This document shows positions 14,901 through 63,953 of a stretch of DNA of 64,000 nt, piece after piece. How positions within the stretch are numbered: position 1 is the first letter of the stretch; each line of letters starts with the position of its first letter. Under the pieces are notes generated by a model that was not told where the DNA came from, ran no database searches, and saw only the letters and a list, made by a program, of their open reading frames with translations. This DNA comes from a virus: the IMG/VR virus record IMGVR_UViG_3300031521_000009; one strand, written 5' to 3'. A program made the translations under genes and the position numbers.

Positions 14901-17900
14901 GGATTCTTATCAGTAGTATTTGTTGGGTTTTTATCACCAATAGTATTTTTGGTAAGATTATTCATTGACTGAACCGGTTTAAAACCATAGTTCGCAATCA
15001 TATCAGTAAACTTAGCAAAGTCATTTTCAAATAACCGCATGATAGCTCTTTCCAATTTAGGAAGACTTTCTACTTTTCCACTCTTTACATCATTAGTAAG
15101 ACTTCTAATCTTTTCAATTTTTGATTGTTTATTAATCATATTGAATTGATCTATTTTACCGGTTACTGCATTACCTGGTATAATGACATCAATACCATCA
15201 ACTGTTTCATAAGAAAGTTCATAACTTCCTTTACCGCTTAAATCTTTAGTAAGAGAAGTTGCATCAAACATATTACGTAATTGGTCAAAAGTACCATTTG
15301 CTTGAGCTTCTTTGGAAACATCAATCATCTGTTTACGTAATCCTTTGGTAAAATGAGCTTCATTATTTTCTGCCGGTGCATTCAAGAACTTCGTTTTGGT
15401 AGATAATGATTTGTTTATCTCCATAAGTGCGTTGTTCAGATTTGAACGTGAAGTATTAATACGTTTTTTGATTTTATCGTATTCACGTAATACTTCTGTT
15501 CCGGCAACTGAATAATCAATATTAAAACCATTATCGGTATTGATAAGTGTTGACTCTACTTTGGCAAAGATTATTTTACCAGTATCCGATACTGTTGTAG
15601 TAGGAACATAAATAACCGGCCGAGCTTTTGATTTTACCATTTCTTGCATAAACATGTTGATACTCGTGTCAATGAAGTCAGAAGTATCAATTTTTGTTTT
15701 TCCAATAGAAGTAAATCCAAGTGAACGGTTTTCTCCGATACTTTCTATAAAGCCAGTAATCTTAGTTGTATCTGTAGGGTCTTGTTTAAAGGCATCAAAC
15801 TCTTCATTGAGTGTAGTCTTTAAAGCAACTGAATAAGTGGCTGTACCCTTAGCTGTGTAACGATGGGTATCATTTGTTTGTCCACCTAGTTTCTGCTGTA
15901 TAGAAGCAATCATATTTGATGATACAAACATATCTTCCGGAGTAACATATCTCATAGAAGATACATCATTAGTTATCTCTTCATTTTCTACAATGTCAGG
16001 TTGTACTTCAAAAGTAATAAGGTTCTTTGGTGTTGTTCTATTTAGGAAGCCAAGAACTATATCACTTCCGGTAATACTCTGGATGCGTGTCAATGGTGAT
16101 AAACTTTCTTTTGTATTATATCGAATATGATTTAATAGGTTACGTTGTATGATAACTTTCTTAGCCGGTTTATTAATGTCCTCATTAGCTTTTAAAGTTT
16201 CTTCTGTATAGTTTTTAGAATATTGATTATACAATGTAATCATGGCACCTAAATAATCAGCCATAAAATCTGATGGAGTAGCATAATTGGCTTGTATCTC
16301 AGAATTGAAATTACTTACATATCCAATCTTATTAATAGTTTTCATATTATCAGTAACCTCTGACCAACTATTAGCAACCATAAGACTCTTGAACATGGCC
16401 GGAGTAACACCTTTTAATGCAAACTGTCCTTTGATACGATTAAAGATGTCTACTATATGCGCGTATTCTCCTTTGGTATTAAGCATATCAGTAGAGAAAG
16501 GTGACATAGTAGTATTACCAAACTTTTTAGATGTAGCAATAACACCTTCTTTATTTGCAAATTTGAATCTACCATTTTCGTATTTTAAGAAACTAGTTTT
16601 ATTAGTAACATTATTATACCGGCTTACCTTAATATCAGTATAGTCAATAGACATATTTTCTTTAAAGAATGATATTGAATTTGTGTTCAACTCACCATTC
16701 AAAATCTTATATCCTTGAATACGTTTAATCTCTTCGGCGGTACCTCTCCAAAAGTCTTTATAGTAATGAGTAGACTTCATAGTATCATCATAGTAAGTGA
16801 ACTTAACCTGGTCTTTTACATTGAAAGAAGTATATACACTTACCAATGAATTTAAAAGGTCTTTAGCCTGTTCTATCTTACGTTTTTGATCTTCTTGTTT
16901 AGCATCCCATGACCATGTAGCATCAGAGTTCTGCGCTCCTACTTCTTGTTTCCATTCTTGTTCATTTTGATAAGAACGTTCAAGTAGTCCTTTATAACGA
17001 CCATCATAGTTTTCTTCTGAGATATAATGATTAGAATAGTCAAGTGAGAAATCAGTTCCTTTACCTTTTGCTTCAAACATGTAGTTGTACATGCTATGAA
17101 TTACTTCGGCTGCCGGATTCAAATATCTGTTTGATTCATCAATTTCAGAATTATCAATGAATCCTTCCATAATAGATTTTAATGCAGATACTTTATCAGT
17201 AACACCATCCATTTGACTTACTCGCATACCAAGGTCTATCATCAATGAATGAACTTGTTTCTGATCTAAGAACTTTACTTTTCCGCGGGCATCAAATACA
17301 GCACTACCATTTGTATTGATAAGTGGTATAGAACTAAGATATAGTTTTTGTATATCGGAAACATTCTGTTCAGAAGAATAACCATCCCAATCAAAACGTT
17401 CACCGGCACCCACTTCTTTTTCAAATGAGTCATTCATCATATCATATGATGGAAGCATAGTCTGCACAATCATTCTAATATTTTTATCAGAATAGATTTT
17501 GTATGCATCAATACTATTCCGGCCATTGATATCAGAAAGTTTAATATTCAAAGGTTCTCCATTCTCAACAATATCTTTTACTGCCATTTCATTTTCTTCA
17601 AGTTCTCCTTGTTCATTTTGAGTAATAACAGTGGCCATAGTTTCACCATACAATTCTTGATATTCTTTTCCTTCTTCAATAATAGAATTAATACTTTCCG
17701 ATAATGAATTAATATTACTGTTTTTTGTATTGGAGAAAATAGAGTTTTGAAGTATAGACATTCTTAGTCCGGACTTAGCAATAACTAATGATTCAGTATT
17801 GTAAAGTTCTTTCTTTAATGCTTCTTCCATCTGACTGGCAATAAGTAATCGTTTGCTAGAACTTTCATTTGTTGATTGTACTGTTTCTTCAGAAGTAGTA

Positions 17901-20900
17901 TCACTTTCATATTCTTCAAAAGCAATATCTGATTTTTCAGTATTCATTTCTGGAACCCTATTAGCAAACTCGCCATTGTTTATTTGATTGTATAAGTTCT
18001 TCAACTGTTTGTTTGAACCATATACACCGCGAAGTCCCATAACGATATCTTTCAAGAAACTCTTGAACTGATTGTATAAACGCAAAGCAATATTTACATT
18101 CTTGTCTTTAGTAGTCGCACGTTCTTGTTTTGCATAATCACGAGCAATCCATTCTTCAAGTTCTTTATCACCATTGATAGGTGTTCCTTGTTCATACTTG
18201 TTGATTACCTGGGCCGCTTGTAATAGCATTGCTTTAGCATCAGTATTTATGAAGTTACGATAGACAACATGTAATACTTCATGGTCAACTGTAGAACGTG
18301 GCATCATACCATTCTCTGCTGCTAATGTCATGATAGTATTATCTTGTACCATACCACTTGCAGTAAGACCATTTAAACGAATCTTTCCTTCTTGTGTAAG
18401 GAATAGTTCAGATTCAGTATAAGACTGTCCTAAACGTAAAGCAACACGGTCTATTGACTGTTGTATAGGTTCTACATCAGGAGAAGAGTATTGTGTTTCT
18501 TCAAGTCCTATATTTGGAAGTTTTTTCTTTCCCGGTTTATTTACTGGTGGAGTTGGTGAAGTTATTGGTTCTACTTTATCAAGACCTACATAGAATGATT
18601 TATTGTTTATGCCCAAAGCTTGTACATTAAGCATATCAATAGTTTCTTTACCACTAACATGAGTAGTATAAGTTTCATTGTTTAATGTCAAGAAATCATA
18701 TAATCCGGACATAGCAAGATTATCTTTCTTAGAAAGAAAATCACTTAGTTCTTTATACTGTGAATCAAAACCACTATTACGATCTTTATCTGTCTTGAAA
18801 GAATCAAGATTGATATCCAAGAATGTTTTACTTTTTTGCTGAATCTTAATAAATGCAAAGATTGCTTTATCAGTTGCCTGAGTAGAGTTCTTTAAAGTAG
18901 AAAGGTTCGCGCGCAATAATTTATAAATAGTAGTTTTTGAGAATGCTGTTTGTTTGGCTTTCCACTTTTGTTCATCTGATAAAATAGTAGATGATAATAT
19001 TTCTTGTGAAATAAAGTCCTCTTCTGCCTTAATACGTCCAATGATAGAATCCATAGAAGCATTTGCGCGCTGTTTAATGGTTTCATTCTTGCTAGTAATA
19101 GACTGGCTAAACTTAGGCATTTGTACTACTAAACGAATACTTTCATTACTATTTAATTGAACATTTAAACGTAATCTGCCATCAATATACAATGGAGTTA
19201 TATCAGTTTGTGCGCCAGGGAAGTCTTTCAACAAATCAGTTACCGTTGTCAAATCACTTTCATTATTTGAATACTCTACTTTACGAATACCCATATCATG
19301 AAAATCAACATTTACCTTATCAGTAATACTTGCATGAGTATCATAGATAGACATGTTCATATCACGTTGTTTAATCAATTCAGATTGAACCGGTGCGAAA
19401 ATAGGATTATTGATAACAGCATTCCATGCATCTACTAGTCGTTGTTTCTCAGTTTTCTGTTTTTCAAGTTCAGTTTCCTTTACATCAAATGAAGTATAAG
19501 AAATCTTACCACTTCCATCAATACTAATAACTGATGGTAGAGTCATAGAACCAATAGCATTGGAAAACTTACCACCATTTAATCCCGGAGTAGTAAATAT
19601 GTCATTGATGATAGAATATACTGGTATATCCATTGCTTTTATAGATGTACCATTAGGATTTACTGAATGCTTTTTAATAATGGCATTTACATAATCCTCA
19701 GCAATAGTTCCCATAAAGATATCTTGAATGGCTTGTAACTGTTCTCCTACCAATCCTTTGTTAGTTGGATCAAAAGAAAGAACAATCATATCGTACTTTG
19801 CAGTCTTATTATCCTTATCCCATCCGGTAGTATTTTGTTTCTCAGCTTTTAATTGAAACAAATGTTTATACTGTGATAGGTTCGATATAAAGGCGTCATT
19901 TATTGCACGACGTAACTTACCATTCTCTTGACTTAAACTATCGCTAGCACCAACTAAAGTAGCACTGGTAGCCCAGAAAATATGTGACTTGTTTTTGTTC
20001 TTATCGAATATAGCAGTAGAGTTGTTCAAGAAGCGTTCACGCGATAACTGACTTACTTCATTTGGAACAACTGGTTTCACTTCTTCAATGATTGCAGTAG
20101 GTACCGAGAAATCTTCGTTATCTGAAAGTACTGTTGATACTGTTTGATTTTCGTCAGGGTATATACCGGTTATCTCATACTGAGTAGAGCCATCAGAGAA
20201 TACAGATTCATTGATAGATAATAATTGAAATATGTCTTTTTCATTATTGTCATAATAACTTTCACCAACCTTTAATGCAGTTCCTTTATGTTCATAATCT
20301 TCAACAGAATTTTCTTCTACTAATGTAATAGGATTCTCTGTTGATTGACTTGTACGAAGAATACTTTCAAAACCCGTAATATGTTTGATAAGATTATCTT
20401 TAATTGAAATATTTGGATCAATAGTATTATTGAATTTTGTTTGACCATTCCAATTAATAGAAAGGACATCACGATTACCAACTTTCTTTATTTCCCAATC
20501 AGCATCTACTGTTGCAGTATCTATTAAATCACCATCAGCATTAAAGTAATTAATCTTTAATCCTACCTCTTTACCCGAAGTTTGATTCTGATTATTATTA
20601 CTAGGGTTTGGAGTGGTCACTGTAGGGTTAGCAATAGGTGCTGTTGCCACTTTCTGTGCTTCCATACTCATACTATTCATATCAGTATTTAAACCCTGTA
20701 AACGCAATGTTTCAATAGCTCTGAATTTTTCCTTTTGTTGTAGCTGAATAGCATTCAATGCTTCTTCCGGTAAACCAGTAGATGCAGCAAGAGAACGGTC
20801 AACATTCAAAGAAGTATCACCAACCATACCATACCAAGAGCTAGAACGACCAATAGCAGTATAAAGTGCTGAGGCCATTAAACTTGTAGTAATAGGTTTT

Positions 20901-23900
20901 GCTATCTGACTACTATCAGACTGTCTGAATACAGCATAGATTTCTTTCTGACGTAATCCTTGCAGTAGTTTATTATCATTGACACCGCGACGTAAAGCAA
21001 AATAGATTTTATCCTTATTTGCTTCTATTTGTTTTTTAAGTGTATCATTGTCTTTAGTAAACGCATCCAGTGCATCCTGATCTAAGAAAATAGCTGCTCT
21101 ATCCGGATTGGTAGCAAGACCATCTATGAACGAGTTCCATACATCCATGTGTGATGCAAAGAAACGCGCTCCTAATTTAGTCTTACCACTTATATCTTCT
21201 GTCACCTTATCAAACTTTACTATTCTACCAATGGCACCAATAGCCGGGCGACATGCTTCTGCAAGTTGACGAAGTAATGGAGAAGTAGCACTAAATTGTT
21301 CAGTAAGCATGTGCGTAGTCATTGTCTGCAACATCATCAAAGGATAATGACCTACAGAACCTGCATCACGCATTTGGAATACATCACCCATGAATACTAA
21401 TTTGGCTTTTGTATTTACAAAATGTTCTTTGATAGCTTTCATTTCATTTTCAGAAACAAGTGATGCTTCATCAATAACATAAGTATTTCCTTCTGTAGTA
21501 TTCATACTCTTCATTCCTTTGATAAAATCAGTATATGATATTACTGTTGGATTTTCAGCACCAAAAGATTGTTTATGTACCTTAGAAAGTTCTTCCGTAA
21601 TACTTACTACTGTTAGTTTACCTACTGATGATTTCTTATCAGTACTATATCCATCAAGTCCGCGAAGTATTCTAAATGCTCTTCCTACAGTGAACTGAGT
21701 CTTTCCAGTACCATAATCTCCACCAATAGTCAATGCATTGCTTAGATAGCTTTCTATGAAGTGATGGCCACCCTTCTCAGTAGCTATTGAATGCATAGGT
21801 AAAAAGTAATTTGCAAATAACGACAAAGGACTTGTAAGCGTTTTATTGCTTAAAAGTCCAACTATTGAATTGATTGCAGCTTCTTGTTCTCCCGTTTCTA
21901 ATGGTGTATTTGACTCATTAGTAAATATCATTTTTCGTATCTTGAACATATCGTTCATACTGTATTTACTACCTATCCAGATAAGCGTGTTCAAGTGTTC
22001 GCGCAGTCGGGTAATATCATTTGCATTAGAACTGGAAAAATTGTATTTACGTTTGGAAACACCACCAACATTCTCCATAGTAAATAATGGATTACGGGCA
22101 TGTAGTTCACGAGTAGAATTTGTCAATGAACCATTCTCTCCAATATGTGAAGATGAATCATCAGCATGTAAAAGAGTACCTTCTGAATTAAGTACTTTTC
22201 CATCTTCTCCAATAGAATCATTGGCAACATAAAACTCACGGAATATCTCAAACAACAAATCTTGATTGTCCTTAGAAAATAATTCAGAATTTTCTTTATT
22301 ATATTCGACATTCATTTCAGAAAGGATATTGTTTACGATATTCTCTCTTTTAGATAACTGAGTAAGTTGTGCTTCGGTAAGTTGTCCTTTTGCATCAAGA
22401 ATAGATGGATCAAGTTCTCCAATAGCATTTAATTCTTCAATTAAGTTCTGACTGATTATTTGCGTGCCATCAGAACGACGTAATCCAAGAGTAGTAAATA
22501 ATTGAACACTCTTGAATGTATTCTCATGAATGATAACACGACTATGCAAACGTAACATTTGATTGGCCAAGTCAGCACCATCAATCTTACTTGCAAGTTC
22601 ATCAGCCATACGTATAGCATCACGTAATTGAATCTCATAGGTATTGTTACCATTAGCATTTTTACTTGCCAATTCAGAAACAAATTCACGTTCCGGTTGT
22701 GACTGATGATCACTTACTTTCTTTTCATTAGCAATACGTTCAGAAGTCTTGAAAGTATAAAGGAAATGTTCATTCTTTTTTACTCTATCAATCTCTTGAC
22801 GAATGATTTCAGAACCATTAGTACCATAAAATTTACCATCAGGATATTCTTTCTTATAAGTTTCTCCCTGGTCAGTAAGAACTGAATTAATCCATACCTC
22901 AGCTTCTTTCATCGTATCTTGTAATTCTGTGAAGTAATTACTCAAAAATGTTTTACCATTTGGAGTATTCTGTTCACGCATTAGTTTAATACGTTTTTGA
23001 AATTGTTCCGGAGTTTCATTAGCATGTTCTAATGTCTGTCCATCAATACGCATAAATGGAAGTTTACCTTTCCCATTAAATGAAGAGTATTGATTATTTA
23101 CGTTTTCAAGTCCCAGCGCGCGTGCAGCAGCATTCAACTGATTATCATGAGAGAATTGTTCATCATCAAAACTTTCAATTGTACGTTCGGCTTTTCCTAC
23201 TTCTTCTGCAGCAGTTTGACTTTCATCTTGATAATGTTTCAATTCTTGTTGAATAGCATTTAGCTTATCAGTTTCTTGTTGACGTTGTTCATCGCTGGTT
23301 TCCGCCGGTAAAGAATTGATAGTTTCTAATTGAGCATCATATTCAGATTGTTTAGTAGTAATGAATGGTTCCAATTCAGCAACACGTTTACCATACATAT
23401 CAATTTTTTCATTGGCCGGAGTAAGAATCTTACCTTCTGCTTGCTGAGCGATATTAGAAGTAAGTCCTTTTGCAGCATCATACATTGATGAAAACTTATT
23501 TTTAAGTTCATCAAGTTTACTATTATCCATTGTAGTACCAAATACATTTCCACTTGTTTGGTCATTGAATACAGATAATTCTTTAGCTAAACGATTAGAC
23601 AATCCGGCAACATCAGTAATCAATGATTTATGCTCAGCTTCATTATACGGTTTTGAAAGAGTATCACCTATTCGTTGTTGTAAGGCATTTAAATCACTCG
23701 ATAATGTTGCATGAGTAGTTTGGTTATCTATATCATTAATAATGGCATTAGCATGTGTCTGTTGAGCTTGTGCAGCTTCATCTACACGTTGACGTAAGTT
23801 CTCAATGTTTTCATACGTAAAGTTCTTCTTAATTACATTCTCCCATGATGCAGCATATTGACGTTGGAAGTTAGGATCGTTTTTCATCTCCCGAGTAAAC

Positions 23901-26488
23901 TCTTTTGAGTTAGTAAGAGCTTGCATTTCCATTTCAACTTGTTTCATAACGGTAACGTTACGTTTCATCAAGTCATTGGCCGCTTTAGAGTTTTGAGTTC
24001 CCTCTTCACGTTTAGTATAATACTCGTATTCAGATAAAGCTTTATTATACTTATCAACTAATGGTTGCTTAGCTTCTTCATTTTCTTTTTGAAGTTGAGC
24101 AATCTGTTCATCAGTAGCAGTAGCACCTGCTTCTTTTGGTTGAAATGATTCAATAGCAGCTTTACTATCGCGCATATCCATGAAAGCTTGACCAGATTTG
24201 TTTAATGATATCTGACCATCAAATCCAGCCTGAGAAAGAATGTTTCTATCAACATCATTCAACCCCATACTTTCATTCAACTCTTTATACGAGTCCACTA
24301 ATTGCACAAATTCGACATACCTCATTTCAGCGAAGTTGTCGATTAATTGTCCCTCTTGATATCCCAATTTTTGTAGAGATGGACTCTTAGGTACTGAGAA
24401 TAAACTTGGATCAAATTGTTCTCCTACAGTAGCATCTTTGATAAGGATATCTTTCACTCCCCACATACCACCATCAGGTTTCTGAATATGATCAGTAGCT
24501 ATATTGATAAGTTCATCACCTTGGCCTTTCAGAACTTTCCATTTCAGTAATTCTTTTTGTTGAGTTTCTGTTTTACTGTCGGGAATACCTTTAATCTTTT
24601 TGATTACGTGAGGAACAGCACCAGTAATAGCAGTCATTAAAGTAGTAGCAAATATGGTTCCTAAAGAAGTATCTGAAAATCCTTCAAATACACCAGTAGT
24701 ACCTATCTGTCCATTACCAACTTCGGAATATGCTGGAGCAGCTTTATCAACTTGCATTTGAACAGTATTGTATAATGCTTGCTCAAAATTTTCTTGAAAG
24801 ACTTCACTAACATTTGCTTTGGCTACATTAGCAAGATAACTTTCATTGTCAACAATACCTTTAATGAATTTGCTATTGTATATCTTAGAGAAACTATCGT
24901 AAACAGCTTCTTTAATAGTCTTGTCAGTAAGTGTACCGGCAGCTTCTTTAGCAGCTAATTTTTGAGCCATTGGAGCATAGATTTCTCTCATAGCCTTTTC
25001 AGCAATGTTTGGTCCTAGTTGTTCACCAATCCATTTATTTGTAAAATGTTCAGTAACGTATGTCAATGGTAAAGCAAAGAATCCAAATTTAGCAGTTGTT
25101 TCCGGACTAACACCATTTTCATCAGCTACACGTTGAAATGAACTATAAGACTGTGAAGTACCAATAGCATTTACTAGAAACTCAGTACCATACTGCAAAG
25201 CTTTTGTTGCAATACCTTTACCAGCAAATGCTGCAGTACCTTCTAATGCAGACATAGCACCACCCGAAGCCATACCTACAGCTATCTGAGGAAGAAGATA
25301 ACCAAGTGTCGGAGCTTGACGTACCATCCAATCAATAGCACCGGTTCCTTGTTCTGTAGATGCTGATTGTTTAAATTCAGCTTGTTTCCAATCATTGAAA
25401 AAACCTTGTAATGCTTTATCTCCTTTTGACCAATTAATCGGTTGTGCTTCTCTACGTAATGAATTACCTACATTAGATGGAAGAGAGCCATAAGAGTAAT
25501 TGAATGCTTTATTCATAGCATCATAATCACCAGATTCAAATGCTTTATCAAGTTCTTCTACAGCCTTTACATTGCCTTGTGCTAAGTTAGCAGCACGTAC
25601 TTTATCATAATGTTTCTGAATGGCTTCATTACCTTGTTTGTAAAGATAAGTTTCATCATGATTCATTGCATTATTGAAAAGTGCACCAACAGAAGAAAAG
25701 GAACTCATAGTACCGGCGGTTGCTGCACTGTAAGCTCCTACAAAGAAATCTTTAATAGAACTACCAAATGTTTCTTTTGGACCCCACTTAGTTGAGTACT
25801 GTCTATCTCCTGCAACAAAAGCATCTGATGGTAATACATCAAATACTTCACGTCCATTGGTAGGGTCAATAGTTGTTGTTACTACTGCCTTTCCATCACC
25901 AAACATCTTATCCATTCCATCCTTTCCAGGGTTAGGAATACGTTTACCATTCTTCAAAATGTATGGTGCAGCAGAAGCACGTTCTTCACCGGTACCGCGT
26001 TCATTATCTTCATTACGAAATGGATCATGATAAGGCCCCCAATCAGGTCTGATATCTTTTACATTACCCAAATCTTTATCATGAACTGCTCTACCAGTAA
26101 CTGCTGAGTTTTGTGTGTCGTGATAAAACTTTAATGCTGATAAGTCAACACCTCTTTTATTTAAACTTACTTTCTTTGCATTCTCTACTTTTGCCTGATT
26201 AAAAGTTTTGATTATTTGACTTGCTGGTAAAGCTTCCGTATCAGTAGGATTTTTTTCTTTTGAGTACTTATCTACATAATAGTTTATATCGTTGAAAACA
26301 GGCTGCTCAGAATGCGCCATAGAGGTAAAGATATCTGCAGTTGATTGCTTATTCTTCAAAGCATCACCAACTACATCAACCTTACCTTGGTAATTTCCTT
26401 CTTGGTCTACAAATGCATCACTAGTCTGTGCTTGATATTTTTCTTCAAGTGTTGGTACTACTGGTTGTGCTTGTTCTTGGTTATCCAT
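8984..26488 (-). CDS. virion-packaged RNA polymerase polyprotein (crAss-type) with SF1 helicase and zincin domains
   Basis: 5834 aa. RNAP catalytic loop NDSDYDIDAL at 12581-12601 (compare DFDID of phi14:2 gp66). Walker A GGDYGTGKT at 21698-21724, plus IDEAS, GDVFQ and LYTAIGR. HEVLH at 18269-18283. Position matches crAss-like RNAP genes. Confidence 0.88.
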   Translation of the reverse strand: MDNQEQAQPVVPTLEEKYQAQTSDAFVDQEGNYQGKVDVVGDALKNKQSTADIFTSMAHSEQPVFNDINYYVDKYSKEKNPTDTEALPASQIIKTFNQAKVENAKKVSLNKRGVDLSALKFYHDTQNSAVTGRAVHDKDLGNVKDIRPDWGPYHDPFRNEDNERGTGEERASAAPYILKNGKRIPNPGKDGMDKMFGDGKAVVTTTIDPTNGREVFDVLPSDAFVAGDRQYSTKWGPKETFGSSIKDFFVGAYSAATAGTMSSFSSVGALFNNAMNHDETYLYKQGNEAIQKHYDKVRAANLAQGNVKAVEELDKAFESGDYDAMNKAFNYSYGSLPSNVGNSLRREAQPINWSKGDKALQGFFNDWKQAEFKQSASTEQGTGAIDWMVRQAPTLGYLLPQIAVGMASGGAMSALEGTAAFAGKGIATKALQYGTEFLVNAIGTSQSYSSFQRVADENGVSPETTAKFGFFALPLTYVTEHFTNKWIGEQLGPNIAEKAMREIYAPMAQKLAAKEAAGTLTDKTIKEAVYDSFSKIYNSKFIKGIVDNESYLANVAKANVSEVFQENFEQALYNTVQMQVDKAAPAYSEVGNGQIGTTGVFEGFSDTSLGTIFATTLMTAITGAVPHVIKKIKGIPDSKTETQQKELLKWKVLKGQGDELINIATDHIQKPDGGMWGVKDILIKDATVGEQFDPSLFSVPKSPSLQKLGYQEGQLIDNFAEMRYVEFVQLVDSYKELNESMGLNDVDRNILSQAGFDGQISLNKSGQAFMDMRDSKAAIESFQPKEAGATATDEQIAQLQKENEEAKQPLVDKYNKALSEYEYYTKREEGTQNSKAANDLMKRNVTVMKQVEMEMQALTNSKEFTREMKNDPNFQRQYAASWENVIKKNFTYENIENLRQRVDEAAQAQQTHANAIINDIDNQTTHATLSSDLNALQQRIGDTLSKPYNEAEHKSLITDVAGLSNRLAKELSVFNDQTSGNVFGTTMDNSKLDELKNKFSSMYDAAKGLTSNIAQQAEGKILTPANEKIDMYGKRVAELEPFITTKQSEYDAQLETINSLPAETSDEQRQQETDKLNAIQQELKHYQDESQTAAEEVGKAERTIESFDDEQFSHDNQLNAAARALGLENVNNQYSSFNGKGKLPFMRIDGQTLEHANETPEQFQKRIKLMREQNTPNGKTFLSNYFTELQDTMKEAEVWINSVLTDQGETYKKEYPDGKFYGTNGSEIIRQEIDRVKKNEHFLYTFKTSERIANEKKVSDHQSQPEREFVSELASKNANGNNTYEIQLRDAIRMADELASKIDGADLANQMLRLHSRVIIHENTFKSVQLFTTLGLRRSDGTQIISQNLIEELNAIGELDPSILDAKGQLTEAQLTQLSKRENIVNNILSEMNVEYNKENSELFSKDNQDLLFEIFREFYVANDSIGEDGKVLNSEGTLLHADDSSSHIGENGSLTNSTRELHARNPLFTMENVGGVSKRKYNFSSSNANDITRLREHLNTLIWIGSKYSMNDMFKIRKMIFTNESNTPLETGEQEAAINSIVGLLSNKTLTSPLSLFANYFLPMHSIATEKGGHHFIESYLSNALTIGGDYGTGKTQFTVGRAFRILRGLDGYSTDKKSSVGKLTVVSITEELSKVHKQSFGAENPTVISYTDFIKGMKSMNTTEGNTYVIDEASLVSENEMKAIKEHFVNTKAKLVFMGDVFQMRDAGSVGHYPLMMLQTMTTHMLTEQFSATSPLLRQLAEACRPAIGAIGRIVKFDKVTEDISGKTKLGARFFASHMDVWNSFIDGLATNPDRAAIFLDQDALDAFTKDNDTLKKQIEANKDKIYFALRRGVNDNKLLQGLRQKEIYAVFRQSDSSQIAKPITTSLMASALYTAIGRSSSWYGMVGDTSLNVDRSLAASTGLPEEALNAIQLQQKEKFRAIETLRLQGLNTDMNSMSMEAQKVATAPIANPTVTTPNPSNNNQNQTSGKEVGLKINYFNADGDLIDTATVDADWEIKKVGNRDVLSINWNGQTKFNNTIDPNISIKDNLIKHITGFESILRTSQSTENPITLVEENSVEDYEHKGTALKVGESYYDNNEKDIFQLLSINESVFSDGSTQYEITGIYPDENQTVSTVLSDNEDFSVPTAIIEEVKPVVPNEVSQLSRERFLNNSTAIFDKNKNKSHIFWATSATLVGASDSLSQENGKLRRAINDAFISNLSQYKHLFQLKAEKQNTTGWDKDNKTAKYDMIVLSFDPTNKGLVGEQLQAIQDIFMGTIAEDYVNAIIKKHSVNPNGTSIKAMDIPVYSIINDIFTTPGLNGGKFSNAIGSMTLPSVISIDGSGKISYTSFDVKETELEKQKTEKQRLVDAWNAVINNPIFAPVQSELIKQRDMNMSIYDTHASITDKVNVDFHDMGIRKVEYSNNESDLTTVTDLLKDFPGAQTDITPLYIDGRLRLNVQLNSNESIRLVVQMPKFSQSITSKNETIKQRANASMDSIIGRIKAEEDFISQEILSSTILSDEQKWKAKQTAFSKTTIYKLLRANLSTLKNSTQATDKAIFAFIKIQQKSKTFLDINLDSFKTDKDRNSGFDSQYKELSDFLSKKDNLAMSGLYDFLTLNNETYTTHVSGKETIDMLNVQALGINNKSFYVGLDKVEPITSPTPPVNKPGKKKLPNIGLEETQYSSPDVEPIQQSIDRVALRLGQSYTESELFLTQEGKIRLNGLTASGMVQDNTIMTLAAENGMMPRSTVDHEVLHVVYRNFINTDAKAMLLQAAQVINKYEQGTPINGDKELEEWIARDYAKQERATTKDKNVNIALRLYNQFKSFLKDIVMGLRGVYGSNKQLKNLYNQINNGEFANRVPEMNTEKSDIAFEEYESDTTSEETVQSTNESSSKRLLIASQMEEALKKELYNTESLVIAKSGLRMSILQNSIFSNTKNSNINSLSESINSIIEEGKEYQELYGETMATVITQNEQGELEENEMAVKDIVENGEPLNIKLSDINGRNSIDAYKIYSDKNIRMIVQTMLPSYDMMNDSFEKEVGAGERFDWDGYSSEQNVSDIQKLYLSSIPLINTNGSAVFDARGKVKFLDQKQVHSLMIDLGMRVSQMDGVTDKVSALKSIMEGFIDNSEIDESNRYLNPAAEVIHSMYNYMFEAKGKGTDFSLDYSNHYISEENYDGRYKGLLERSYQNEQEWKQEVGAQNSDATWSWDAKQEDQKRKIEQAKDLLNSLVSVYTSFNVKDQVKFTYYDDTMKSTHYYKDFWRGTAEEIKRIQGYKILNGELNTNSISFFKENMSIDYTDIKVSRYNNVTNKTSFLKYENGRFKFANKEGVIATSKKFGNTTMSPFSTDMLNTKGEYAHIVDIFNRIKGQFALKGVTPAMFKSLMVANSWSEVTDNMKTINKIGYVSNFNSEIQANYATPSDFMADYLGAMITLYNQYSKNYTEETLKANEDINKPAKKVIIQRNLLNHIRYNTKESLSPLTRIQSITGSDIVLGFLNRTTPKNLITFEVQPDIVENEEITNDVSSMRYVTPEDMFVSSNMIASIQQKLGGQTNDTHRYTAKGTATYSVALKTTLNEEFDAFKQDPTDTTKITGFIESIGENRSLGFTSIGKTKIDTSDFIDTSINMFMQEMVKSKARPVIYVPTTTVSDTGKIIFAKVESTLINTDNGFNIDYSVAGTEVLREYDKIKKRINTSRSNLNNALMEINKSLSTKTKFLNAPAENNEAHFTKGLRKQMIDVSKEAQANGTFDQLRNMFDATSLTKDLSGKGSYELSYETVDGIDVIIPGNAVTGKIDQFNMINKQSKIEKIRSLTNDVKSGKVESLPKLERAIMRLFENDFAKFTDMIANYGFKPVQSMNNLTKNTIGDKNPTNTTDKNPYYQQLEKSEIRFNQPMFGFYMATMFANNHIDDFSLNPFSFKNYLDKVKRNGPIHTPAQSVLTQGTKEVVQNNVRYQLHTPTLTTESPIVFYRDNMVDGGNTYQEIDGQKVLANNGNMMKPEDGQITINPFHYLQTLNSIGGTKTVIGNASMYKGLTNFRRADGTYSQIKRGDKVITGFDMQHTYYRNMFMRMLAETDRQLVARVGEESFNENKLSFTDKFKELYDDKNNQKEFNDIIVDMMNWIDNQQYYQDRITINPDGIERAGHMYNSIVAFMAPVSTQKGSVTSVNTYDALNDVDYSQPLNMDVVDNTKTKIVMNPSQDTDINAKLQAAPSQQDATGLGVSNNPEISSLYSAYMENKQGLQTALRKELEESISKYGEVEAAKQFKNIDWSKYDVSTLTEQQKSEIDPAIKQLMDFMRDRVVNSLRTSGQDMAFIELFSDMDVSMQLPMMRSKVLQSYRNMANQSIQARTKGIRLTQTVGEYLEEFVRDGKIYSRNDAINELRPGTNYRDYSFDEYNSDAMNQELAAAGFTMQRLQDMNIVNGKTTVGHISMPNVYAKVYGHRSNESLIDIQHINLGTERIALDSSNLYDKLMAGLSEDADMSLNQWSAFVDSPMIRKAIKNLKIETYVDELINPSVDNDGKRFISKRIANLIDSTREMTTEELQSEVNATNESILEAINSMELQSTDLANPDKVIAALMGSGEILEQILTEAQQLLKDFEESNTSFLSRVPATFLGSGGVFKTAMFHNGGNVVYIPTGMTLRNDSDYDIDALTMYSNSLDSKGHIIQKGADGHRNKMNALRNTITLHSGNQESLFLTSSLDKINEVMKQKEKLVDNLQNNSIRSIYESYSRNKAGADAIGILANSLTVSSIIISSSVNKFVETGTHSGIQNFINENAPKGKIKTGLNGFVIELGTWGQGALDNAKNNTFANYAISPVGINILAVLKLNGMNNSEVYDFFNNKNIRNLFHTYSGKTSIMTKSADFNLWKMASTEVDKIASRIEHFNNTNVSQWLESKGLSWKSNVHDTEKYSLELETTDVLLQQSIDDLLMKELTSYYKNNKEAFKNSPYDFTGSDKEQLLQQWKKDNGFDDENLFTYKNNKIVFDKTDVSNFDIKDLDSISTEVANELKLMVRSRANINIARTDIQGLRYMKMVPKLSVTADALYRLSTIMGMRNGIPSLDKDFRTMINTVQQTIGMSLQEYNSNPASDMNVAKHMAYYTINNDAYNKEQDEKKKAFMFSQEQLVANEINMGKLIKNLPQIDYILQELYRQELITKQSFMADNEAIEKDVVKSFLKLQNRTTLNFGGEVAAVSTAINDIMLDKYYATIGESAIMKGQYIYQAVGNTYENPSQNLDLSSLFDRQSFVKNFPQFMMDIVEHSDNIDYLNKTVQSELPAEEWIRFAVNPLIKLFTIGGKFDVKLLLDVNTKEMTEQRVAQLKDYFNSLPKEYKEMLINYEIIANRMSYRQGGLLQVIGVDFYKGPISKVYNDTYAELRSSLGLDSLVPNKYRKSVTFNSDIRERIYDYLGLQPEFAQYLSPKAVVNENSPKYAYQFETKTIDGEKVNTGHRINLKLNDNNAYEVFGNITSLGMSTMAGENMTSELRSFQTTPEEEYNLSLANRDNNDLILHQGSRAWVSEGQFLYTRSGKLIRVIKVKGTNFEYRLANDSDITYRMEQKEMDTQKRNNRIQLKEGTLQHSIFDPNATSLTENEVTKPMEYKVKGNMFLSQLNINTLTNDGVETRISIFDNKNKFNSINEVLDAYKYKVLSTIGEKTKNFPWDLKNYQNEEHRRNKINKYIRNLVDDVQVVETEKNANEIKQIKIAMAQLNFKQSLIVKALVQARALAYISSQGKNMVEQLTSKISSTDFLANQKTTFNKEVEDMSVGITTYGKVARSAIVEMINPAVRAEMKATESKRSEMLNTLEGSLELFDSEIAKKDSKKEVAEGEPAIGTPAQDNESDNNDEKNKCK

Positions 26489-40388: not shown

Positions 40389-41825
40389 TTAATATTTTAC
40401 TGGACGATAAAGTTCAGCAATACCGTTTACGTCAAGTAAAGCTGCACCAGTTTCCCATAGGATGTGGTGGTGTTTACCATCCACTGAGTTGGCCATGTCG
40501 CCACCTTTGTTGATACCATTTACTTCACCTTCTAACCAACCGCGTTTTCCAAGTTGCAATAACTCAATTGCTGGTTGATTGATTTCAACATCTCCCAATG
40601 ATACAAAGATTGCATTATGAGAACTGTTACGGGTTCCATCAGCACCATAAGTGGTTGCACGTTGAGGATTATCAAACCATGGCACTACAGTAGGAATCAT
40701 TTTGACACCACCAAATTCATAGTATTCATAATCCAAGTTGATACCTTTCTTACCATTACCACCCATCTCAACTGTTTTAGGGTCGATACCGGCTTGTTCA
40801 CGCATAAGCTTAGCAAATCCTTTGTAGAACTGCATACCACAGATTACGGCTACCTCAGTTCCCCATGAAGAAGAATAGATAGAAATGTTTTCCATGATAT
40901 TATCAATGACACGTGTTGAAATAACATTGTAAGGTAATCTCCAAGCACCATCGCCTTGATTCAAGATACCATCACCGGCCATTACTTCAAATCCTTCATT
41001 TGTTTTCAACAGAACTTTATCATCTGCAGTAACAGTTGATTTTCCGTTCAACAATTGTTTTTCACGATACATAGCGGCACGTTCAAGCATTTGAATCTGT
41101 GCATGGTCAGCCCACATAGAAACGCCATTATGTTCCATCCAAATAGCACTAGGACGATATTCATCAGCAGTACCAGACATAGACCATTTCAAACGTTGAA
41201 TAGTCATGTGAGTATATGCCTTTTCGTCAAAGGTATATTTTTCGTAAGCTGTTTCTGACATTTCTTCGAATGAAGTATGTGAGATACTAACTTCTTGTCC
41301 AATAGCAAGCAAATTCGGATTTACATAATCACCCGATACATTGGTCATGATTTTTACACGGTAATGGAAAATTCCGGCATCAACTTCTTGTGGAAGAGTC
41401 GAGTCGGAAACGTGTACATAAGTTTGGTTATCGGCAAGTTCAAGAACATCTTTTGGAGAGAACCAATTGGTATCAAGATACAAGTCAATCCACGTTTGGT
41501 TACGACCAGGTTCATTAGGGAATGCATCACATTTGAATGCAGCAATAACGCGAGCTTTACGATCCGGATAACCTTTGACATTCCACATTACTTTGCGGTT
41601 ACCAACGATTTTATACTTTCCTGATTTTGGATTCAAAGGATCAGCAAGTTTTCCCGAGAACATATTACGACCGGCAAGTAATGAACTAAATGCAGTTACA
41701 TTTTTACGGAAAAGGGTAGTTACTTGTGCAAGCATATGTGGTGCTGCAATCAAGTATTGTGACATGTGTTTTGATGTCGGAGTTTGATTAGCGAACTCTT
41801 GTGGTGCGCCAGGTAAAATTCTCAT
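40389..41825 (-). CDS. major capsid protein
   Basis: 478 aa; order terminase-portal-scaffold-MCP; motifs FEEMSE, GDGILNQ and MANSVDG typical of crAss-like MCPs; codon usage of a highly expressed gene. Confidence 0.85.
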   Translation of the reverse strand: MRILPGAPQEFANQTPTSKHMSQYLIAAPHMLAQVTTLFRKNVTAFSSLLAGRNMFSGKLADPLNPKSGKYKIVGNRKVMWNVKGYPDRKARVIAAFKCDAFPNEPGRNQTWIDLYLDTNWFSPKDVLELADNQTYVHVSDSTLPQEVDAGIFHYRVKIMTNVSGDYVNPNLLAIGQEVSISHTSFEEMSETAYEKYTFDEKAYTHMTIQRLKWSMSGTADEYRPSAIWMEHNGVSMWADHAQIQMLERAAMYREKQLLNGKSTVTADDKVLLKTNEGFEVMAGDGILNQGDGAWRLPYNVISTRVIDNIMENISIYSSSWGTEVAVICGMQFYKGFAKLMREQAGIDPKTVEMGGNGKKGINLDYEYYEFGGVKMIPTVVPWFDNPQRATTYGADGTRNSSHNAIFVSLGDVEINQPAIELLQLGKRGWLEGEVNGINKGGDMANSVDGKHHHILWETGAALLDVNGIAELYRPVKY

Positions 41826-60902: not shown

Positions 60903-61118
60903 ATGATTATTACTAGTGTAAATCAAGTTTATGATATTGTTGGAAATGAAATAATATTGTCCGGAATGAGTAATAAACAAATAGCTACTAAAGCTGGAGT
61001 AACTGAAAGTATGGTTAGTTCAGTAAGAGGTGGCAGATATATGCAAGTTAGTTTTGAAAAATTCATTACTATTTGTAAAGTTTTAAAAATTGAACTTCAA
61101 ATTAATATTAAACAATAA
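60903..61118 (+). CDS. XRE/Cro-family HTH protein
   Basis: MSNKQIATKAGVTESMVSSVRGG...VSFEKFITICKVL. Confidence 0.8.
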   Translation: MIITSVNQVYDIVGNEIILSGMSNKQIATKAGVTESMVSSVRGGRYMQVSFEKFITICKVLKIELQINIKQ

Positions 61119-61122
61119 CAGT

Positions 61123-61407
61123 ATGGGAACACAAAATTATAGAGCTAAAGGAGATATTATCTTCTTTATGAACAACAACAAGATTGAAAAGAAACCAATC
61201 TTAGGTATATCAACATACACTGGTGATTGCCAAGTATTAATGAGTAATAATAGAATTGTTCCGGATGGAGAAGTTCTTATGGTGTATCACACTGGTTCAT
61301 ATCATGAAGTAGAATCAAAAGATGCTTATGATACTCTTGAGGATTTAATGACAAGTCTAACAACACCATTAAACTTACCAGATGGCACACAGAGTAGAGA
61401 ATCCTAA
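61123..61407 (+). CDS. hypothetical protein (94 aa)
   Basis: MGTQNYRAKGDIIFFMNNNKI; operon packing. Confidence 0.7.
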   Translation: MGTQNYRAKGDIIFFMNNNKIEKKPILGISTYTGDCQVLMSNNRIVPDGEVLMVYHTGSYHEVESKDAYDTLEDLMTSLTTPLNLPDGTQSRES

Positions 61408-61648
61408 AGGGTTCAAAGTAATAAGCACTACAGCTACTGAATGCCTACAATGGGGTGGATTTGGCGTGTGTGATCATTGTAATCAATCTTCTGATGAAGG
61501 TCGATTTATTGCAGTTCTTAATCATTGGATATGTCCTGAATGCTTTGATAAATGGCTTAAACGTGCTGTTGTCTATGAAGAGGACAAACCTTATGAGACT
61601 AAAGTATTTAATCGCTATGCTAAATTGCTTGGCTTGCCGATTAAGTAG
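61382..61648 (+). CDS. Zn-finger protein (88 aa)
   Basis: CDHC...WICPEC. Confidence 0.75.
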   Translation: MAHRVENPKGFKVISTTATECLQWGGFGVCDHCNQSSDEGRFIAVLNHWICPECFDKWLKRAVVYEEDKPYETKVFNRYAKLLGLPIK

Positions 61649-61743: not shown

Positions 61744-61813
61744 GGGAGTGTAGCTCAAAGGTAGAGCACAACATTTTATGTTGAGGGTGATGGTTCGAGT
61801 CCATTTGGTCCCA
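61744..61813 (+). tRNA. atypical or pseudo tRNA, Lys(UUU)-like with a shortened anticodon arm
   Basis: D arm GCTC-AAAGGTA-GAGC; T arm GATGG-TTCGAGT-CCATT; anticodon arm CAAC-ATTTTAT-GTTG; weak acceptor stem GGGAGTG/TGGTCCC; no encoded CCA. Confidence 0.6.
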
Positions 61814-61838
61814 CTAATATCAATAAACAATTATTACA

Positions 61839-62132
61839 ATGAGAAATTTAAATAAGATCATTTCTATTGTTTTAAAAATGATAGAGAATAATGAATGCGA
61901 AGATTTGACTAATGAAGAATTAGAACAAATATCAATACTTATTCATAGACCTACTACAATGGGCCGAGAAGATGCTGCTAAGTTTATGGGAGTATCACTA
62001 AATAAGTTCCATGAACTAAAAGACATGGGTATAATATCAGAACCGCGCAAACGTAAAGGATTCAAAGAGAAAGAATATTATCTATCTGATTTGAAAAAAG
62101 CATTAGAATTAAAGAAAAAACTAGACCTATAA
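61839..62132 (+). CDS. excisionase/MerR-like HTH regulator with an N-terminal helical domain
   Basis: MGREDAAKFMGVSLNKFHELKDMGIISEPRK is an HTH_17-like winged helix. Confidence 0.75.
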   Translation: MRNLNKIISIVLKMIENNECEDLTNEELEQISILIHRPTTMGREDAAKFMGVSLNKFHELKDMGIISEPRKRKGFKEKEYYLSDLKKALELKKKLDL

Positions 62133-62138
62133 AATTCA

Positions 62139-62179
62139 TTAGTACTAAGTTAGAGTAGTATATAATTTTGACATGTCAA
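62139..62179 (+). promoter_or_regulatory. promoter (-7 TAATTTTG) with palindromic operator candidates
   Basis: TTAGTACTAA at 62139-62148, TAATTTTG at 62163-62170, and the perfect palindrome TTGACATGTCAA at 62168-62179. Confidence 0.55.
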
Positions 62180-62210
62180 CAATTCAGTTGGCAATTAAAA
62201 ACTATATATT

Positions 62211-62942
62211 ATGTTGACATTAGATGGTACACTACCAACTGGCTCATTAGGCGGTGGTAGTTCAATGGGTTCCGGAGTAGGTCTTGGAGCAGTCGGTGGT
62301 GGTGTTGCTGGGTTAGTTCTCGGTTCACTTCTTGCAAACAATGGTAATGGTTTGTTTGGTGGTGGTAACAATGGCAATGCAAATGTTGCTGAGTTTGGTG
62401 CTATCAATAACCAAATACAATCATTGGCCGGTCAAATCAGTAATACTGCATTGACTGGTCAAATTCGTGCTGATACTATTGACCTTTCTCAAAGTATTAG
62501 TAATGTAGGTACACAAATAGGACAATTGGCGACTGCTCAAGCTGCAGCTAATTTTACTACTTTGGATTCAATCAATGGATTGGGAAGAGATATTACCGCT
62601 TCTCAAAATCAGAATGCTCTTCAACAATTAAACAGTTTCAATAACCTTACTACAACTACATTGCAAGGCTTCAATAGCTCAGCAATGCAAGTACAAAATG
62701 CTACGAATCAAATCATAGCACAAGGTACGGCTAATGCAGCTGCTATGGCTCAATGCTGTTGTGAGATTAAGAGTACTATTCTTGCCGATGGTAATGCAAC
62801 ACGCGCACTTATCAATGACTTGAATGTTCAAAATTTACGGGATCAACTTTCTGCTGCTAACAACAAAATCAGTAACAATGAACAAAATCAGTATTTGTTG
62901 AATACTATTTTGACTCATATTACTCCTACAGCAGTAGTTTAA
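62211..62942 (+). CDS. glycine-zipper membrane protein with a long N/Q-rich coiled coil and a CCC motif
   Basis: GVGLGAVGGGVAGLVLGSLL TM segment, heptad repeats and AQCCCEIK. Confidence 0.85.
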   Translation: MLTLDGTLPTGSLGGGSSMGSGVGLGAVGGGVAGLVLGSLLANNGNGLFGGGNNGNANVAEFGAINNQIQSLAGQISNTALTGQIRADTIDLSQSISNVGTQIGQLATAQAAANFTTLDSINGLGRDITASQNQNALQQLNSFNNLTTTTLQGFNSSAMQVQNATNQIIAQGTANAAAMAQCCCEIKSTILADGNATRALINDLNVQNLRDQLSAANNKISNNEQNQYLLNTILTHITPTAVV

Positions 62943-62953
62943 TACTTGCAATT

Positions 62954-63262
62954 ATGGCCAGTCCAGTAATTGTAGGTACTTCGGCTATAGTAGTCGCTCC
63001 TATAAATAAGAAAAGAAGTAACATTCGATTTCAGAATACCAGTACTAATATAATCTATATAAAGAAAATTCCTTTGAGTGGTCCTTATTCGGTTGTATCT
63101 GCTACTGATTATGAAATTCAATTGTTCCCGGCATCATCTTCTCAGGAAGGTGGTGAAGCATTCGAAACTAACTCTATTGCATCTTTTATGGCTATTGCAG
63201 CCGGAGCAAGTAGTGCTTTAGCAGTTTATGAAACTAATAAGGTAACCTCTAAAACTCATTAA
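62954..63262 (+). CDS. small all-beta protein (102 aa)
   Basis: KRSNIRFQNTSTNIIYI pattern suggests a jelly-roll / spike-base-like fold; co-transcribed with the CCC gene. Confidence 0.65.
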   Translation: MASPVIVGTSAIVVAPINKKRSNIRFQNTSTNIIYIKKIPLSGPYSVVSATDYEIQLFPASSSQEGGEAFETNSIASFMAIAAGASSALAVYETNKVTSKTH

Positions 63263-63263
63263 G

Positions 63264-63449
63264 ATGGAAGAAATAACATTGCATTTACCTCTTAGTAAGG
63301 TAATAGAACTTGTTAGACAAGAGGAAAGAATGATGATTAAGAAATTTTTAGCTACAAATTTAAATCAACAAACTGCTGATTACATTGATCAGTATGTTCC
63401 TGTTGAATCAGAAGTATTGGCTATGTTTACATGTCCGGGCATCGGATGA
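63264..63449 (+). CDS. hypothetical protein (61 aa)
   Basis: Starts 1 nt after the upstream stop; followed by a terminator. Confidence 0.65.
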   Translation: MEEITLHLPLSKVIELVRQEERMMIKKFLATNLNQQTADYIDQYVPVESEVLAMFTCPGIG

Positions 63450-63465
63450 ATTTTGTAGTAGTATA

Positions 63466-63503
63466 TAAAAAGAGTTATGATTAATTTTGTAACTCTTTTT
63501 TTT
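63466..63503 (+). terminator. intrinsic terminator
   Basis: AAAAAGAGTTAT-loop-GTAACTCTTTTT followed by a T-run. Confidence 0.75.
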
Positions 63504-63526
63504 GTTTAATATTTAAATTAAATCAA

Positions 63527-63835
63527 ATGGAAAATGGTAAAGAACCTAGTGCAGATTTAGGTGTAAAAAAAGTACCTGCTAATGAAGCTATTGATGGTGG
63601 TGGACAACCTTTAGCAACTGCTAAATCAGTGTTGAATTATCCACGTAATGAAGAGCTTGTTATTCAATGTGTGATTAATAGTGAAGCCGAAGGATATGCT
63701 CTTTTAAGGGCATTACAAATCGTTGTGAATACCTTTGGTGCTACTACATGTACTCAGCTTGTTACTAAGCTTGAGAATAGTCCTAAGCTTGCTGATACTG
63801 TAAGAAAGTATATTCCTATTGTACTAGAAATGTAA
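63527..63835 (+). CDS. hypothetical protein (102 aa)
   Basis: A-rich start context; clean ORF. Confidence 0.7.
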   Translation: MENGKEPSADLGVKKVPANEAIDGGGQPLATAKSVLNYPRNEELVIQCVINSEAEGYALLRALQIVVNTFGATTCTQLVTKLENSPKLADTVRKYIPIVLEM

Positions 63836-63844
63836 TAATGGTAT

Positions 63845-63953
63845 GATCTAATGGCGGAATTGGTTATACGCATAGTAATTTAAAGAAAAGTCATACGAAC
63901 TACGGTGTCAGGCTTATACACTATAATTCTCTGTTCGAATCAGAGTTAGATCA
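63845..63953 (+). tRNA. atypical class II (Leu-like) tRNA with a ~20-nt anticodon loop
   Basis: Perfect acceptor stem GATCTAA/TTAGATC with A73; D arm TGGCGGAATTGGTTATACGC; stem TAGT/ACTA; variable arm GGTGT/ACACT; T arm CTCTG-TTCGAAT-CAGAG. Confidence 0.65.

Follow-up and report, generated by a model that had tools for sequence, protein, structure and literature searches.

A mobile accessory cassette of a divergent crAss-like phage encodes a predicted cysteine-triplet rod protein with a putative membrane anchor

Introduction

The IMG/VR virus record IMGVR_UViG_3300031521_000009, a DNA stretch of 64,000 nt referred to here as the window, contains a short group of plus-strand genes (positions 61839-63503) which codes for a 243-amino-acid (aa) protein with a glycine zipper, a long helical region and three consecutive cysteines. 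This protein and its gene are called A; the two genes that follow are called B and C, and a further gene downstream is called D. The original prediction, made from the sequence alone, regarded the group as an operon regulated by a helix-turn-helix (HTH) protein and coding for a trimeric, membrane-inserted, spike-like fibre that acts on the host envelope. Do these genes belong together, what kind of protein is A and where would it work?

The stretch is a compact mobile accessory cassette with the order (HTH)-A-B-C, terminator, D. The explanation that we favour, with a probability of roughly 0.4, is that A is a cysteine-locked, membrane-anchored rod which is made in the infected cell and acts at its membrane, in exclusion or in the timing of lysis.

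A belongs to a widespread family of phage proteins

The open reading frames (ORFs) of 97, 243, 102 and 61 aa named in the original prediction were all present. Gene A (62211-62942, plus strand) codes for the signature protein of the cassette. A word-indexed search identified 284 relatives of A at an expectation value (E) of at most 1e-3, and an exhaustive search identified 170 clusters at 50% identity; with these relatives and those of B, the genes are far beyond chance. No family was found in Pfam or NCBIfam for A, B, C, D or the relatives of A.

Direct tblastn comparison of A, B and the capsid protein of the window with GenBank phages gave no match, and the link to annotated phages was reached by chaining through distant metagenomic relatives. 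Alignment of the A family with hhalign matched proteins of Edwardsiella phage eiAU (E 1.5e-21) and Clostridium perfringens phage PMQ04 (E 2e-15), and T5.077 of phage T5, which aligned over the N-terminal glycine-rich region (E 1.9e-12) and carries ECCCELQTAIAG (ECCCE). Chaining also reached Aeromonas phage phiWae15 and Flavobacterium phage FL-1. A family motif, CCC inside a helix and then E-x-K ... DG-x-ATR-x-LI, was present in the consensus of the aligned relatives and was seen in eiAU, phiWae15, PMQ04 and T5.077.

The A protein of the window matched phrog_9288 with E 2.4e-4. The PHROGs 9288, 8119 and 16490 matched 29, 14 and 13 of the 36 aligned members, respectively, the best value being E 1.6e-14 for phrog_9288; all three are annotated 'unknown function'. 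By these profile matches, A is a new member of the catalogued T5.077 / PHROG 9288-8119-16490 family. As for a characterised family that would already explain the operon, catalogued families and GenBank labels were matched, but none of these is characterised, and literature searches on T5.077 and on glycine-zipper exclusion proteins found nothing.

Members occurred in 132 records, mostly (about 130) of enterobacterial siphoviruses, including Drexlerviridae, Queuovirinae and PY100. Six C. perfringens phages carried members, as did tailed viruses assigned to Methanomassiliicoccales (archaea). Human-gut Crassvirales and the cultured Bacteroides phage C3_41T2LP were joined to the family by tblastn chaining via C. 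perfringens and cr116_1 proteins. The GenBank labels in those crassviruses (cr116_1, cr53_1, cr125_1, cr1_1, cr10_1, cr109_1 and C3_41T2LP) read 'spike protein/glycoprotein' or 'outer capsid protein/viral fiber'; these labels rest on coiled-coil likeness. No homologue of A was found in crAss001, a phage with a fully mapped virion.

Three loci deserve separate mention. In Caudoviricetes sp. vir215 (L050:3878-4759), for which Methanomassiliicoccales is given as host, the member is labelled phrog_16490 and lies downstream of a tail protein gene and a reverse transcriptase gene. In Escherichia phage JakobBernoulli (Bas07; L018:4827-5531), two ORFs take the place of a single A-like gene, one of 77 aa with the anchor and one of 125 aa with the CCC triplet, the latter labelled 'putative sugar-binding protein'. 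A frameshift or decay of this copy may be the cause, and that would be in keeping with a dispensable gene. In cr53_1 (L017:4293-6272), read with table 11, the A homologue is interrupted by one in-frame stop and the second gene downstream of it by six; some Crassvirales are reported to recode stop codons in late and lysis genes, and the interruptions fit this.

Genes A, B and C move as one block

The neighbourhood of A was analysed in 20 IMG/VR loci of this crAss-like clade, one of which is cut off within A. Genes A, B and C were contiguous in all 19 loci that reach far enough. Directly upstream of A was an HTH gene in nine of the 20 loci, a capsid gene in eight and neither of these in three. 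Downstream of A-B-C, D was found in 12 of 19 loci and a DUF7841 protein in 13; D homologues also lie 3' of C in L001, L004 and L006. In one further lineage the cassette stood behind GH19 and fibre genes, and in L001 A starts 2 kb after the GH19 gene. Because the positions vary while A-B-C stays intact, the block relocates as a whole, with the HTH gene as a leader that may be absent.

The behaviour is that of a phage moron: the block occupies several positions (behind a capsid, an HTH or a GH19 gene, or in the early arm), it is patchy, and crAss001 yielded no homologue. Early or replication genes surround A in the window, in L006, in C3_41T2LP and in PMQ04. In PY100 the cassette forms a plus-strand islet amid minus-strand genes, and the T5 record has promoter P12 and an efficient terminator annotated around T5.077-079, among tRNA and nucleotide-metabolism genes and outside the structural genes.

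The presence of either an HTH gene or the capsid gene ahead of A suggests that the mode of expression of the cassette matters. In L004 the capsid gene ends with its own hairpin, and read-through from it into the cassette is for that reason uncertain.

The claim that the operon is HTH-regulated was not upheld, as the HTH gene is absent in 11 of the 20 loci and the nearby palindrome is unremarkable (see below). The 97-aa product of this optional leader gene (61839-62132, plus strand) is a probable excisionase/MerR-type HTH protein, with a weak HTH assignment: it matched phrog_668, 'HTH DNA binding protein', with E 3.8e-4, and is 29% identical (E 3e-4) to a cr116_1 protein labelled 'terminase small subunit/excisionase', whose gene is located two genes upstream of the cr116_1 A homologue.

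Sequence and predicted structure of A

The glycine zipper of A is perfect, with four consecutive GxxxG repeats (G22xxxG26xxxG30xxxG34xxxG38). It lies in a hydrophobic segment, residues 20-42 (62268-62336, plus strand), which we take as the membrane anchor; its best 19-residue Kyte-Doolittle mean is 1.88. The best hydrophobic window reached at least 1.6 in 140 of 206 family members, with a family median of 1.76, and the gut crAss and Clostridium relatives have a clearly hydrophobic helix, rich in W, F and L, at the anchor position. No hydrophobic C-terminal segment was found in A, so that it has no C-terminal anchor.

Cys182-Cys183-Cys184 (codons TGC TGT TGT, 62754-62762, plus strand) and Asn122 are the only invariant columns in an alignment of 36 relatives, and the triplet provides the sole cysteines in 111 of 206 family members. 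Both the zipper and the cysteine triplet had been read correctly in the original prediction.

An AlphaFold model of A, built with the 36-sequence alignment, left residues 1-60 unstructured and placed helices at 61-139 and 146-236. The predicted local distance difference test (pLDDT) score was 80-93 only past about residue 155, and the predicted template modelling score was 0.31. Since only the last 80 residues are modelled with confidence, the hairpin packing of the two helices is unreliable. In the family profile, hydrophobic residues recur with a period of about 3.65 residues, in phase over positions 61-236, with a power reached by four of 1000 shuffles; no excess was detected at 3.5 residues. 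The region thus does not have the heptad pattern that had been claimed for it. The observed period is more in keeping with one continuous amphipathic rod, packed in a hendecad-like manner, than with a hairpin of heptads.

The predicted likeness to a fusogen or a spike was not supported by structural comparison. Foldseek returned no match for the model of A, and VIA-align returned generic long helices only (Z score 7.5). When the family profile was compared with PDB sequences, many weak matches to influenza HA2 appeared, covering the fusion peptide and the first helix (E 0.02-0.3). As sequence matches these are not significant, and they are driven by composition.

Companion proteins of A

Gene B (62954-63262, plus strand) codes for a 102-aa protein with 28 relatives. 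It was modelled with confidence (pLDDT 88) as an eight-strand sandwich, small and jelly-roll-like, in agreement with the beta protein that had been predicted. Its PDB matches were generic, with Z scores at noise level: the P1 domain of the PM2 spike was the best (Z 8.3), the others including Ena pilins and cupins. Many phage proteins in the BFVD database, about 90 aa in length, share this fold (template modelling score 0.63-0.72), and in a protein atlas only unnamed viral clusters were matched. Among the BFVD matches was a protein of 95 aa from Pseudomonas phage tf. A single gene of that length is annotated in this phage, tf_60 in the tail module, which may encode the matched protein.

Gene C (63264-63449, plus strand; 61 aa) is always directly 3' of B, and its product was kept at 37-48% identity in all 19 loci. 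Gene D (63527-63835, plus strand; 102 aa), the fourth gene of the cassette, lies past the terminator. No family match was found for C or D, including in a PHROG search, and B, C and D have no signal peptide, export signal or lipobox cysteine.

When B was compared by hhalign with the genes 3' of A in eiAU, PMQ04 and phiWae15, these were unrelated. In the enterobacterial phages the gene after A has a MazG-like motif (found by eye) and is labelled 'putative pyrophosphatase' in GenBank. As the genes 3' of A outside the crAss-like clade are unrelated to B, B is a clade-specific companion. The idea of B as a universal partner of A was not supported, since B accompanies A only in this clade.

Orientation and oligomer state of A

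The segments preceding the anchor (N-tails) are short, acidic and almost without lysine or arginine; 138 of 180 members have one of 16-30 residues, and in 194 of 206 members they are net-negative. Two members differ. In T5.077 a highly charged region with 10 K/R precedes the anchor, with 88 residues ahead of the hydrophobic window. The 510-aa protein bas22_0024 of Escherichia phage KurtStettler (L019:3981-5513), labelled 'putative lateral tail fiber chaperone' in GenBank, has a fibre-like N-terminus, a Peptidase_S74 domain at 208-259 and, directly fused to it, an A-like domain with a glycine-rich segment, the CCCE motif and a Pro- and Cys-rich tip. In this protein 294 residues of fibre and S74 chaperone stand ahead of the A-like part. 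It is the single fusion seen; our search found no longer, fused relatives of the window A.

The N-terminal parts of T5.077 and KurtStettler would not be exportable without a signal, and in these members the N-terminus would therefore be inside and the rod outside. Peptidase_S74 is an intramolecular chaperone known to be trimeric, so that the fusion argues for trimers of A. These two members favour the N-in/rod-out orientation, and a trimer of A is plausible.

Non-coding elements of the cassette

A promoter-like stretch (62155-62179, plus strand) precedes A. It consists of GTAGTATATAA, then a Bacteroidota-type -7 box, TAATTTTG (TAnnTTTG), at 62163-62170, 41 nt before the ATG of A, and a 12-bp palindrome, TTGACATGTCAA, at 62168-62179, which overlaps the box. 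No TTTG -33 element was found at this stretch, for which a promoter role may be proposed from sequence. The original prediction had described a promoter with palindromes. The promoter-like box is there, but only one 12-bp palindrome was found, and such palindromes are not enriched (15 in the window versus 29 in shuffles). The palindrome is not common to the upstream regions of the related loci, and these regions are not conserved.

The predicted terminator after the 61-aa ORF was confirmed as a 14-bp hairpin with a T run (63467-63504, plus strand; dG -12.8, z -3.55). A consensus terminator scanner missed it because its stem is AT-rich. The descending arm of the hairpin holds a second TAATTTTG box (63482), preceded by GTAGTATATAA at 63458. 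The pair of GTAGTATATAA and TAATTTTG is thus present both at 62155-62170 and at 63458-63489, the second copy being 45 nt before D. The 10-mer GTAGTATATA has exact matches only twice in the 64-kb window, at the promoter-like stretch and at 63458. The repeated pair could be a promoter element common to the cassette.

Genome setting

The window is a divergent crAss-like phage. No close relative of its DNA or of its capsid protein was found among 50,697 GenBank phage records. The Crass_capsid major capsid gene (40389-41825, minus strand) lies 20 kb from the cassette, and a 1346-aa fibre with a Peptidase_S74 domain, according to the precomputed Pfam table, lies 6.4 kb from it. The cassette is thus far from the virion genes in the window, as had been predicted, but in relatives it stands directly behind the capsid gene. 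A giant ORF of 5834 aa (8984-26488, minus strand), with ORFs of 1725 and 1472 aa close by, presumably corresponds, to judge from its position and size, to the gene for the giant virion RNA polymerase or cargo in this crAss-like lineage.

The cassette opens a plus-strand arm that runs on into PIF1- and DnaB-type helicase genes. Just upstream of it are a tRNA-Lys(UUU) gene (61744-61814) and genes for an 88-aa zinc-ribbon protein (61382-61648, plus strand; phrog_22392, E 8e-23) and a 71-aa XRE-type HTH protein (60903-61118, plus strand; phrog_7126, E 7e-8). PHROG scans of ten neighbouring ORFs identified one further HTH protein and recognised no lysis gene.

Downstream, a stretch of about 110 nt (63844-63953, plus strand) has an 8-bp acceptor-like stem (TGATCTAA...TTAGATCA) and a T-arm-like CTCTG-TTCGAAT-CAGAG. 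It was not called a tRNA by ARAGORN or Rfam, and its fold is no better than that of shuffles (z -0.63); a tRNA that has degenerated or been interrupted is a possible explanation. Together with the tRNA-Lys(UUU) gene it flanks the cassette on both sides.

A second copy of the cassette, with a 247-aa A protein (P0003) that is 91% identical, was found in the same genome about 22 kb before the window start. The longest contig listed for both P0001 and P0003 is 172,319 bp. The spacing of the two copies, about 84 kb, suggests either that assembly joined the genomes of two related phages or that the duplication is real.

Discussion

In the explanation that we favour, the self-associating glycine-zipper helix would anchor A, as a single-pass protein, in the infected cell's cytoplasmic membrane. 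An amphipathic helical stretch of about 175 residues, roughly 25 nm if fully extended, would form an oligomeric and probably trimeric rod, and in the distal half of this rod the invariant Cys-Cys-Cys would lock it or ligate something. B, C and D would serve as soluble helpers specific to the clade. A would work at the membrane of the infected cell and not as a virion spike, its most likely jobs being to block the entry of competing phage DNA or to tune the timing of membrane permeabilisation at lysis. Members are found in phages of diderm and monoderm bacteria and in viruses assigned to archaea, which points to the cytoplasmic membrane as the common target, and the unmistakable hydrophobic helix of the gut crAss and Clostridium members supports a membrane anchor. 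Of the predicted trimeric, membrane-inserted fibre acting on the host envelope, the membrane-anchored rod build is retained, the trimer being plausible and action on the envelope the most economical assumption, but a spike-like nature is not supported.

Several points weigh against this explanation. The anchor of the window A is only marginally hydrophobic and was modelled as disordered, and the short acidic N-tails would equally permit a rod on the cytoplasmic side. B, C and D are without signal peptides, and a rod bound by them should be cytoplasmic. Bacteroides and Clostridium hosts are anaerobic, and disulfide locking outside the cell is not assured. The A gene is embedded in a late lysis and virion operon in Suoliviridae and follows the lateral tail fibre gene in enterobacterial siphoviruses; late expression is unusual for exclusion genes.

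The recurrent nearness to holin and endolysin genes in Crassvirales keeps a lysis or egress device a serious rival, possible although doubtful, in which A would be holin-like, antiholin-like or a spanin-like rod spanning the envelope and the zipper would form or regulate the lesion. In Suoliviridae A is flanked by holin / LysB-like genes on one side and an L,D-transpeptidase-type gene on the other, in cr116_1 it lies about 1.2 kb after a holin and an L,D-carboxypeptidase gene, and in L001 a GH19 gene precedes it by 2 kb. Tandem GxxxG zippers are typical of channel-forming helices, and a single anchor with a large distal domain resembles the T4 holin T and lambda Rz. The in-frame stop of the cr53_1 homologue may be counted here as well, a review having described recoded stops as enriched in lysis genes. 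However, the cassette is patchy and relocating, its carriers also possess ordinary holins, and no lysis gene was recognised near A in the window. For a spanin there is no lipoprotein partner, B, C and D being without a lipobox, and Clostridium phages and archaeal viruses infect hosts without an outer membrane. A virion part, in which A would form the shaft and B the knob of an accessory fibre on the head or tail, would agree with the GenBank labels but is unlikely. Eight loci have the cassette between the capsid gene and tail-ring-type genes, in enterobacterial phages it adjoins the genes for lateral tail fibres, and in KurtStettler the A-like domain is joined to a fibre-like protein; the PM2 spike domain is the best fold match of B, and B-like proteins may occur in the tail module of phage tf, if the tf_60 match holds. 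In addition, the crAss001 paper leaves the head fibres of most crassvirus groups unidentified. A virion role is nevertheless disfavoured because the relatives bear strongly hydrophobic, membrane-type helices, because the A part of KurtStettler stands behind a self-cleaving S74 chaperone and would be cut off the fibre, because no homologue was found in crAss001 and because T5.077 lies outside the structural genes, under its own promoter; the fold matches of B, as noted, are at noise level.

A cytoplasmic tether comparable to phi29 p16.7, with the N-tail outside, the rod in the cytoplasm, a metal bound by the cysteine triplet and B, C and D docked on it, would anchor a phage process such as replication or assembly to the membrane. 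The acidic N-tails free of K/R, the arginine that often comes after the anchor, the absence of export signals in B, C and D and the location of the gene in an early or replication arm in the window and in C3_41T2LP all agree with it, and the odd number of cysteines speaks against ordinary disulfide pairing within one molecule. However, the opposite orientation is required for those members whose long N-terminal extension is charged or folded, and the Cys- and Pro-rich C-terminal tips of many members look extracytoplasmic. A tether is slightly less probable than a virion part. Least probable of all is a true class I-type fusogen or a pore-forming toxin. Its support comes from the many HA2 matches and from a glycine-rich GLFGG motif that resembles a fusion peptide, but those matches are all above significance thresholds, A has no C-terminal anchor, the structural searches returned no match or generic helices, the periodicity is not that of heptads and the phage has no envelope to fuse.

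Two further candidates were dropped: a two-component spanin (Rz/Rz1), for want of a lipoprotein partner and because of the members in phages of hosts without an outer membrane, and a bacteriocin or double-glycine leader, since A is 243 aa long, genes for export or immunity are absent from the cassette and the family is confined to phages. No embedded Rz1-type ORF was present in the ORF list, which runs from 40 aa upward.

The membrane-anchored rod proposed here has its closest counterparts in T5.077, the PHROG members, eiAU P858_08, PY100 ORF29 and the genes after the lateral tail fibre gene in Drexlerviridae and Queuovirinae. All have a short N-tail, a glycine-rich hydrophobic segment, a long helix rich in N, Q, A and T and the CCCE...DG.ATR.LI motif, and A is the first gene of a short same-strand cassette, often with its own promoter and terminator. 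Self-contained cassettes of this kind, with a family member at the front, are present in phages of Bacteroidota, Proteobacteria and Firmicutes as well as in archaeal-assigned tailed viruses. The anchor differs, being a pure glycine zipper in the window and a W/F/L-rich helix in the T5.077/PHROG relatives. The companions differ as well: jelly-roll B, C, D and sometimes DUF7841 in the clade of the window, the MazG-like gene and two others in enterobacterial phages, and T5.078 and T5.079 in T5. The versions of gut Crassvirales have the same overall build as the window A, which is too distant from them for a direct tblastn match, but they are about 300 aa long, have Cys-rich C-terminal tips and lie in a late lysis and virion operon.

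Phage morons and exclusion membrane proteins such as HK97 gp15, T4 Imm, Cor and Llp are autonomous, patchy and relocating units, often near fibre or receptor-binding genes. The cassette resembles them as a putatively autonomous, patchy, relocating unit that would encode a membrane protein; in contrast, A has no sequence or fold relation to them, is much longer and rod-like, and many of its copies lie in late operons. Lambda Rz, an i-spanin, has an N-terminal hydrophobic segment, a long helical region and functionally important cysteines, as A may have, but A has no lipoprotein partner and occurs in phages of hosts without an outer membrane. Influenza HA2 shares with A a glycine-rich peptide followed by a helix, and differs in that the matches are not significant and A has no C-terminal anchor.

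A broader idea, which we consider very unlikely, is that the cysteine-triplet rods of tailed viruses of diderms, monoderms and archaea are a trimeric machine, fusion-protein-like and independent of envelope type, which breaches or reseals the cytoplasmic membrane at exit or entry. If this were true, the resemblance to class I fusogens would be functional, and companions of the B, C and D type would be lineage-specific triggers.

The A family is among the more widespread phage families without an assigned function, extending over Crassvirales, T5, about 130 enterobacterial siphoviruses, Clostridium phages and archaeal-assigned tailed viruses. The crAss-like version adds that A, B and C are inseparable across relocations and that what precedes the block is either a dedicated HTH gene or the major capsid gene. 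T5 and the BASEL collection offer members of the family in Escherichia coli phages that are easily handled; a function established in these would give a new label to hundreds of genes whose present annotation is 'spike glycoprotein', 'viral fibre', 'sugar-binding protein' or 'tail fibre chaperone'.

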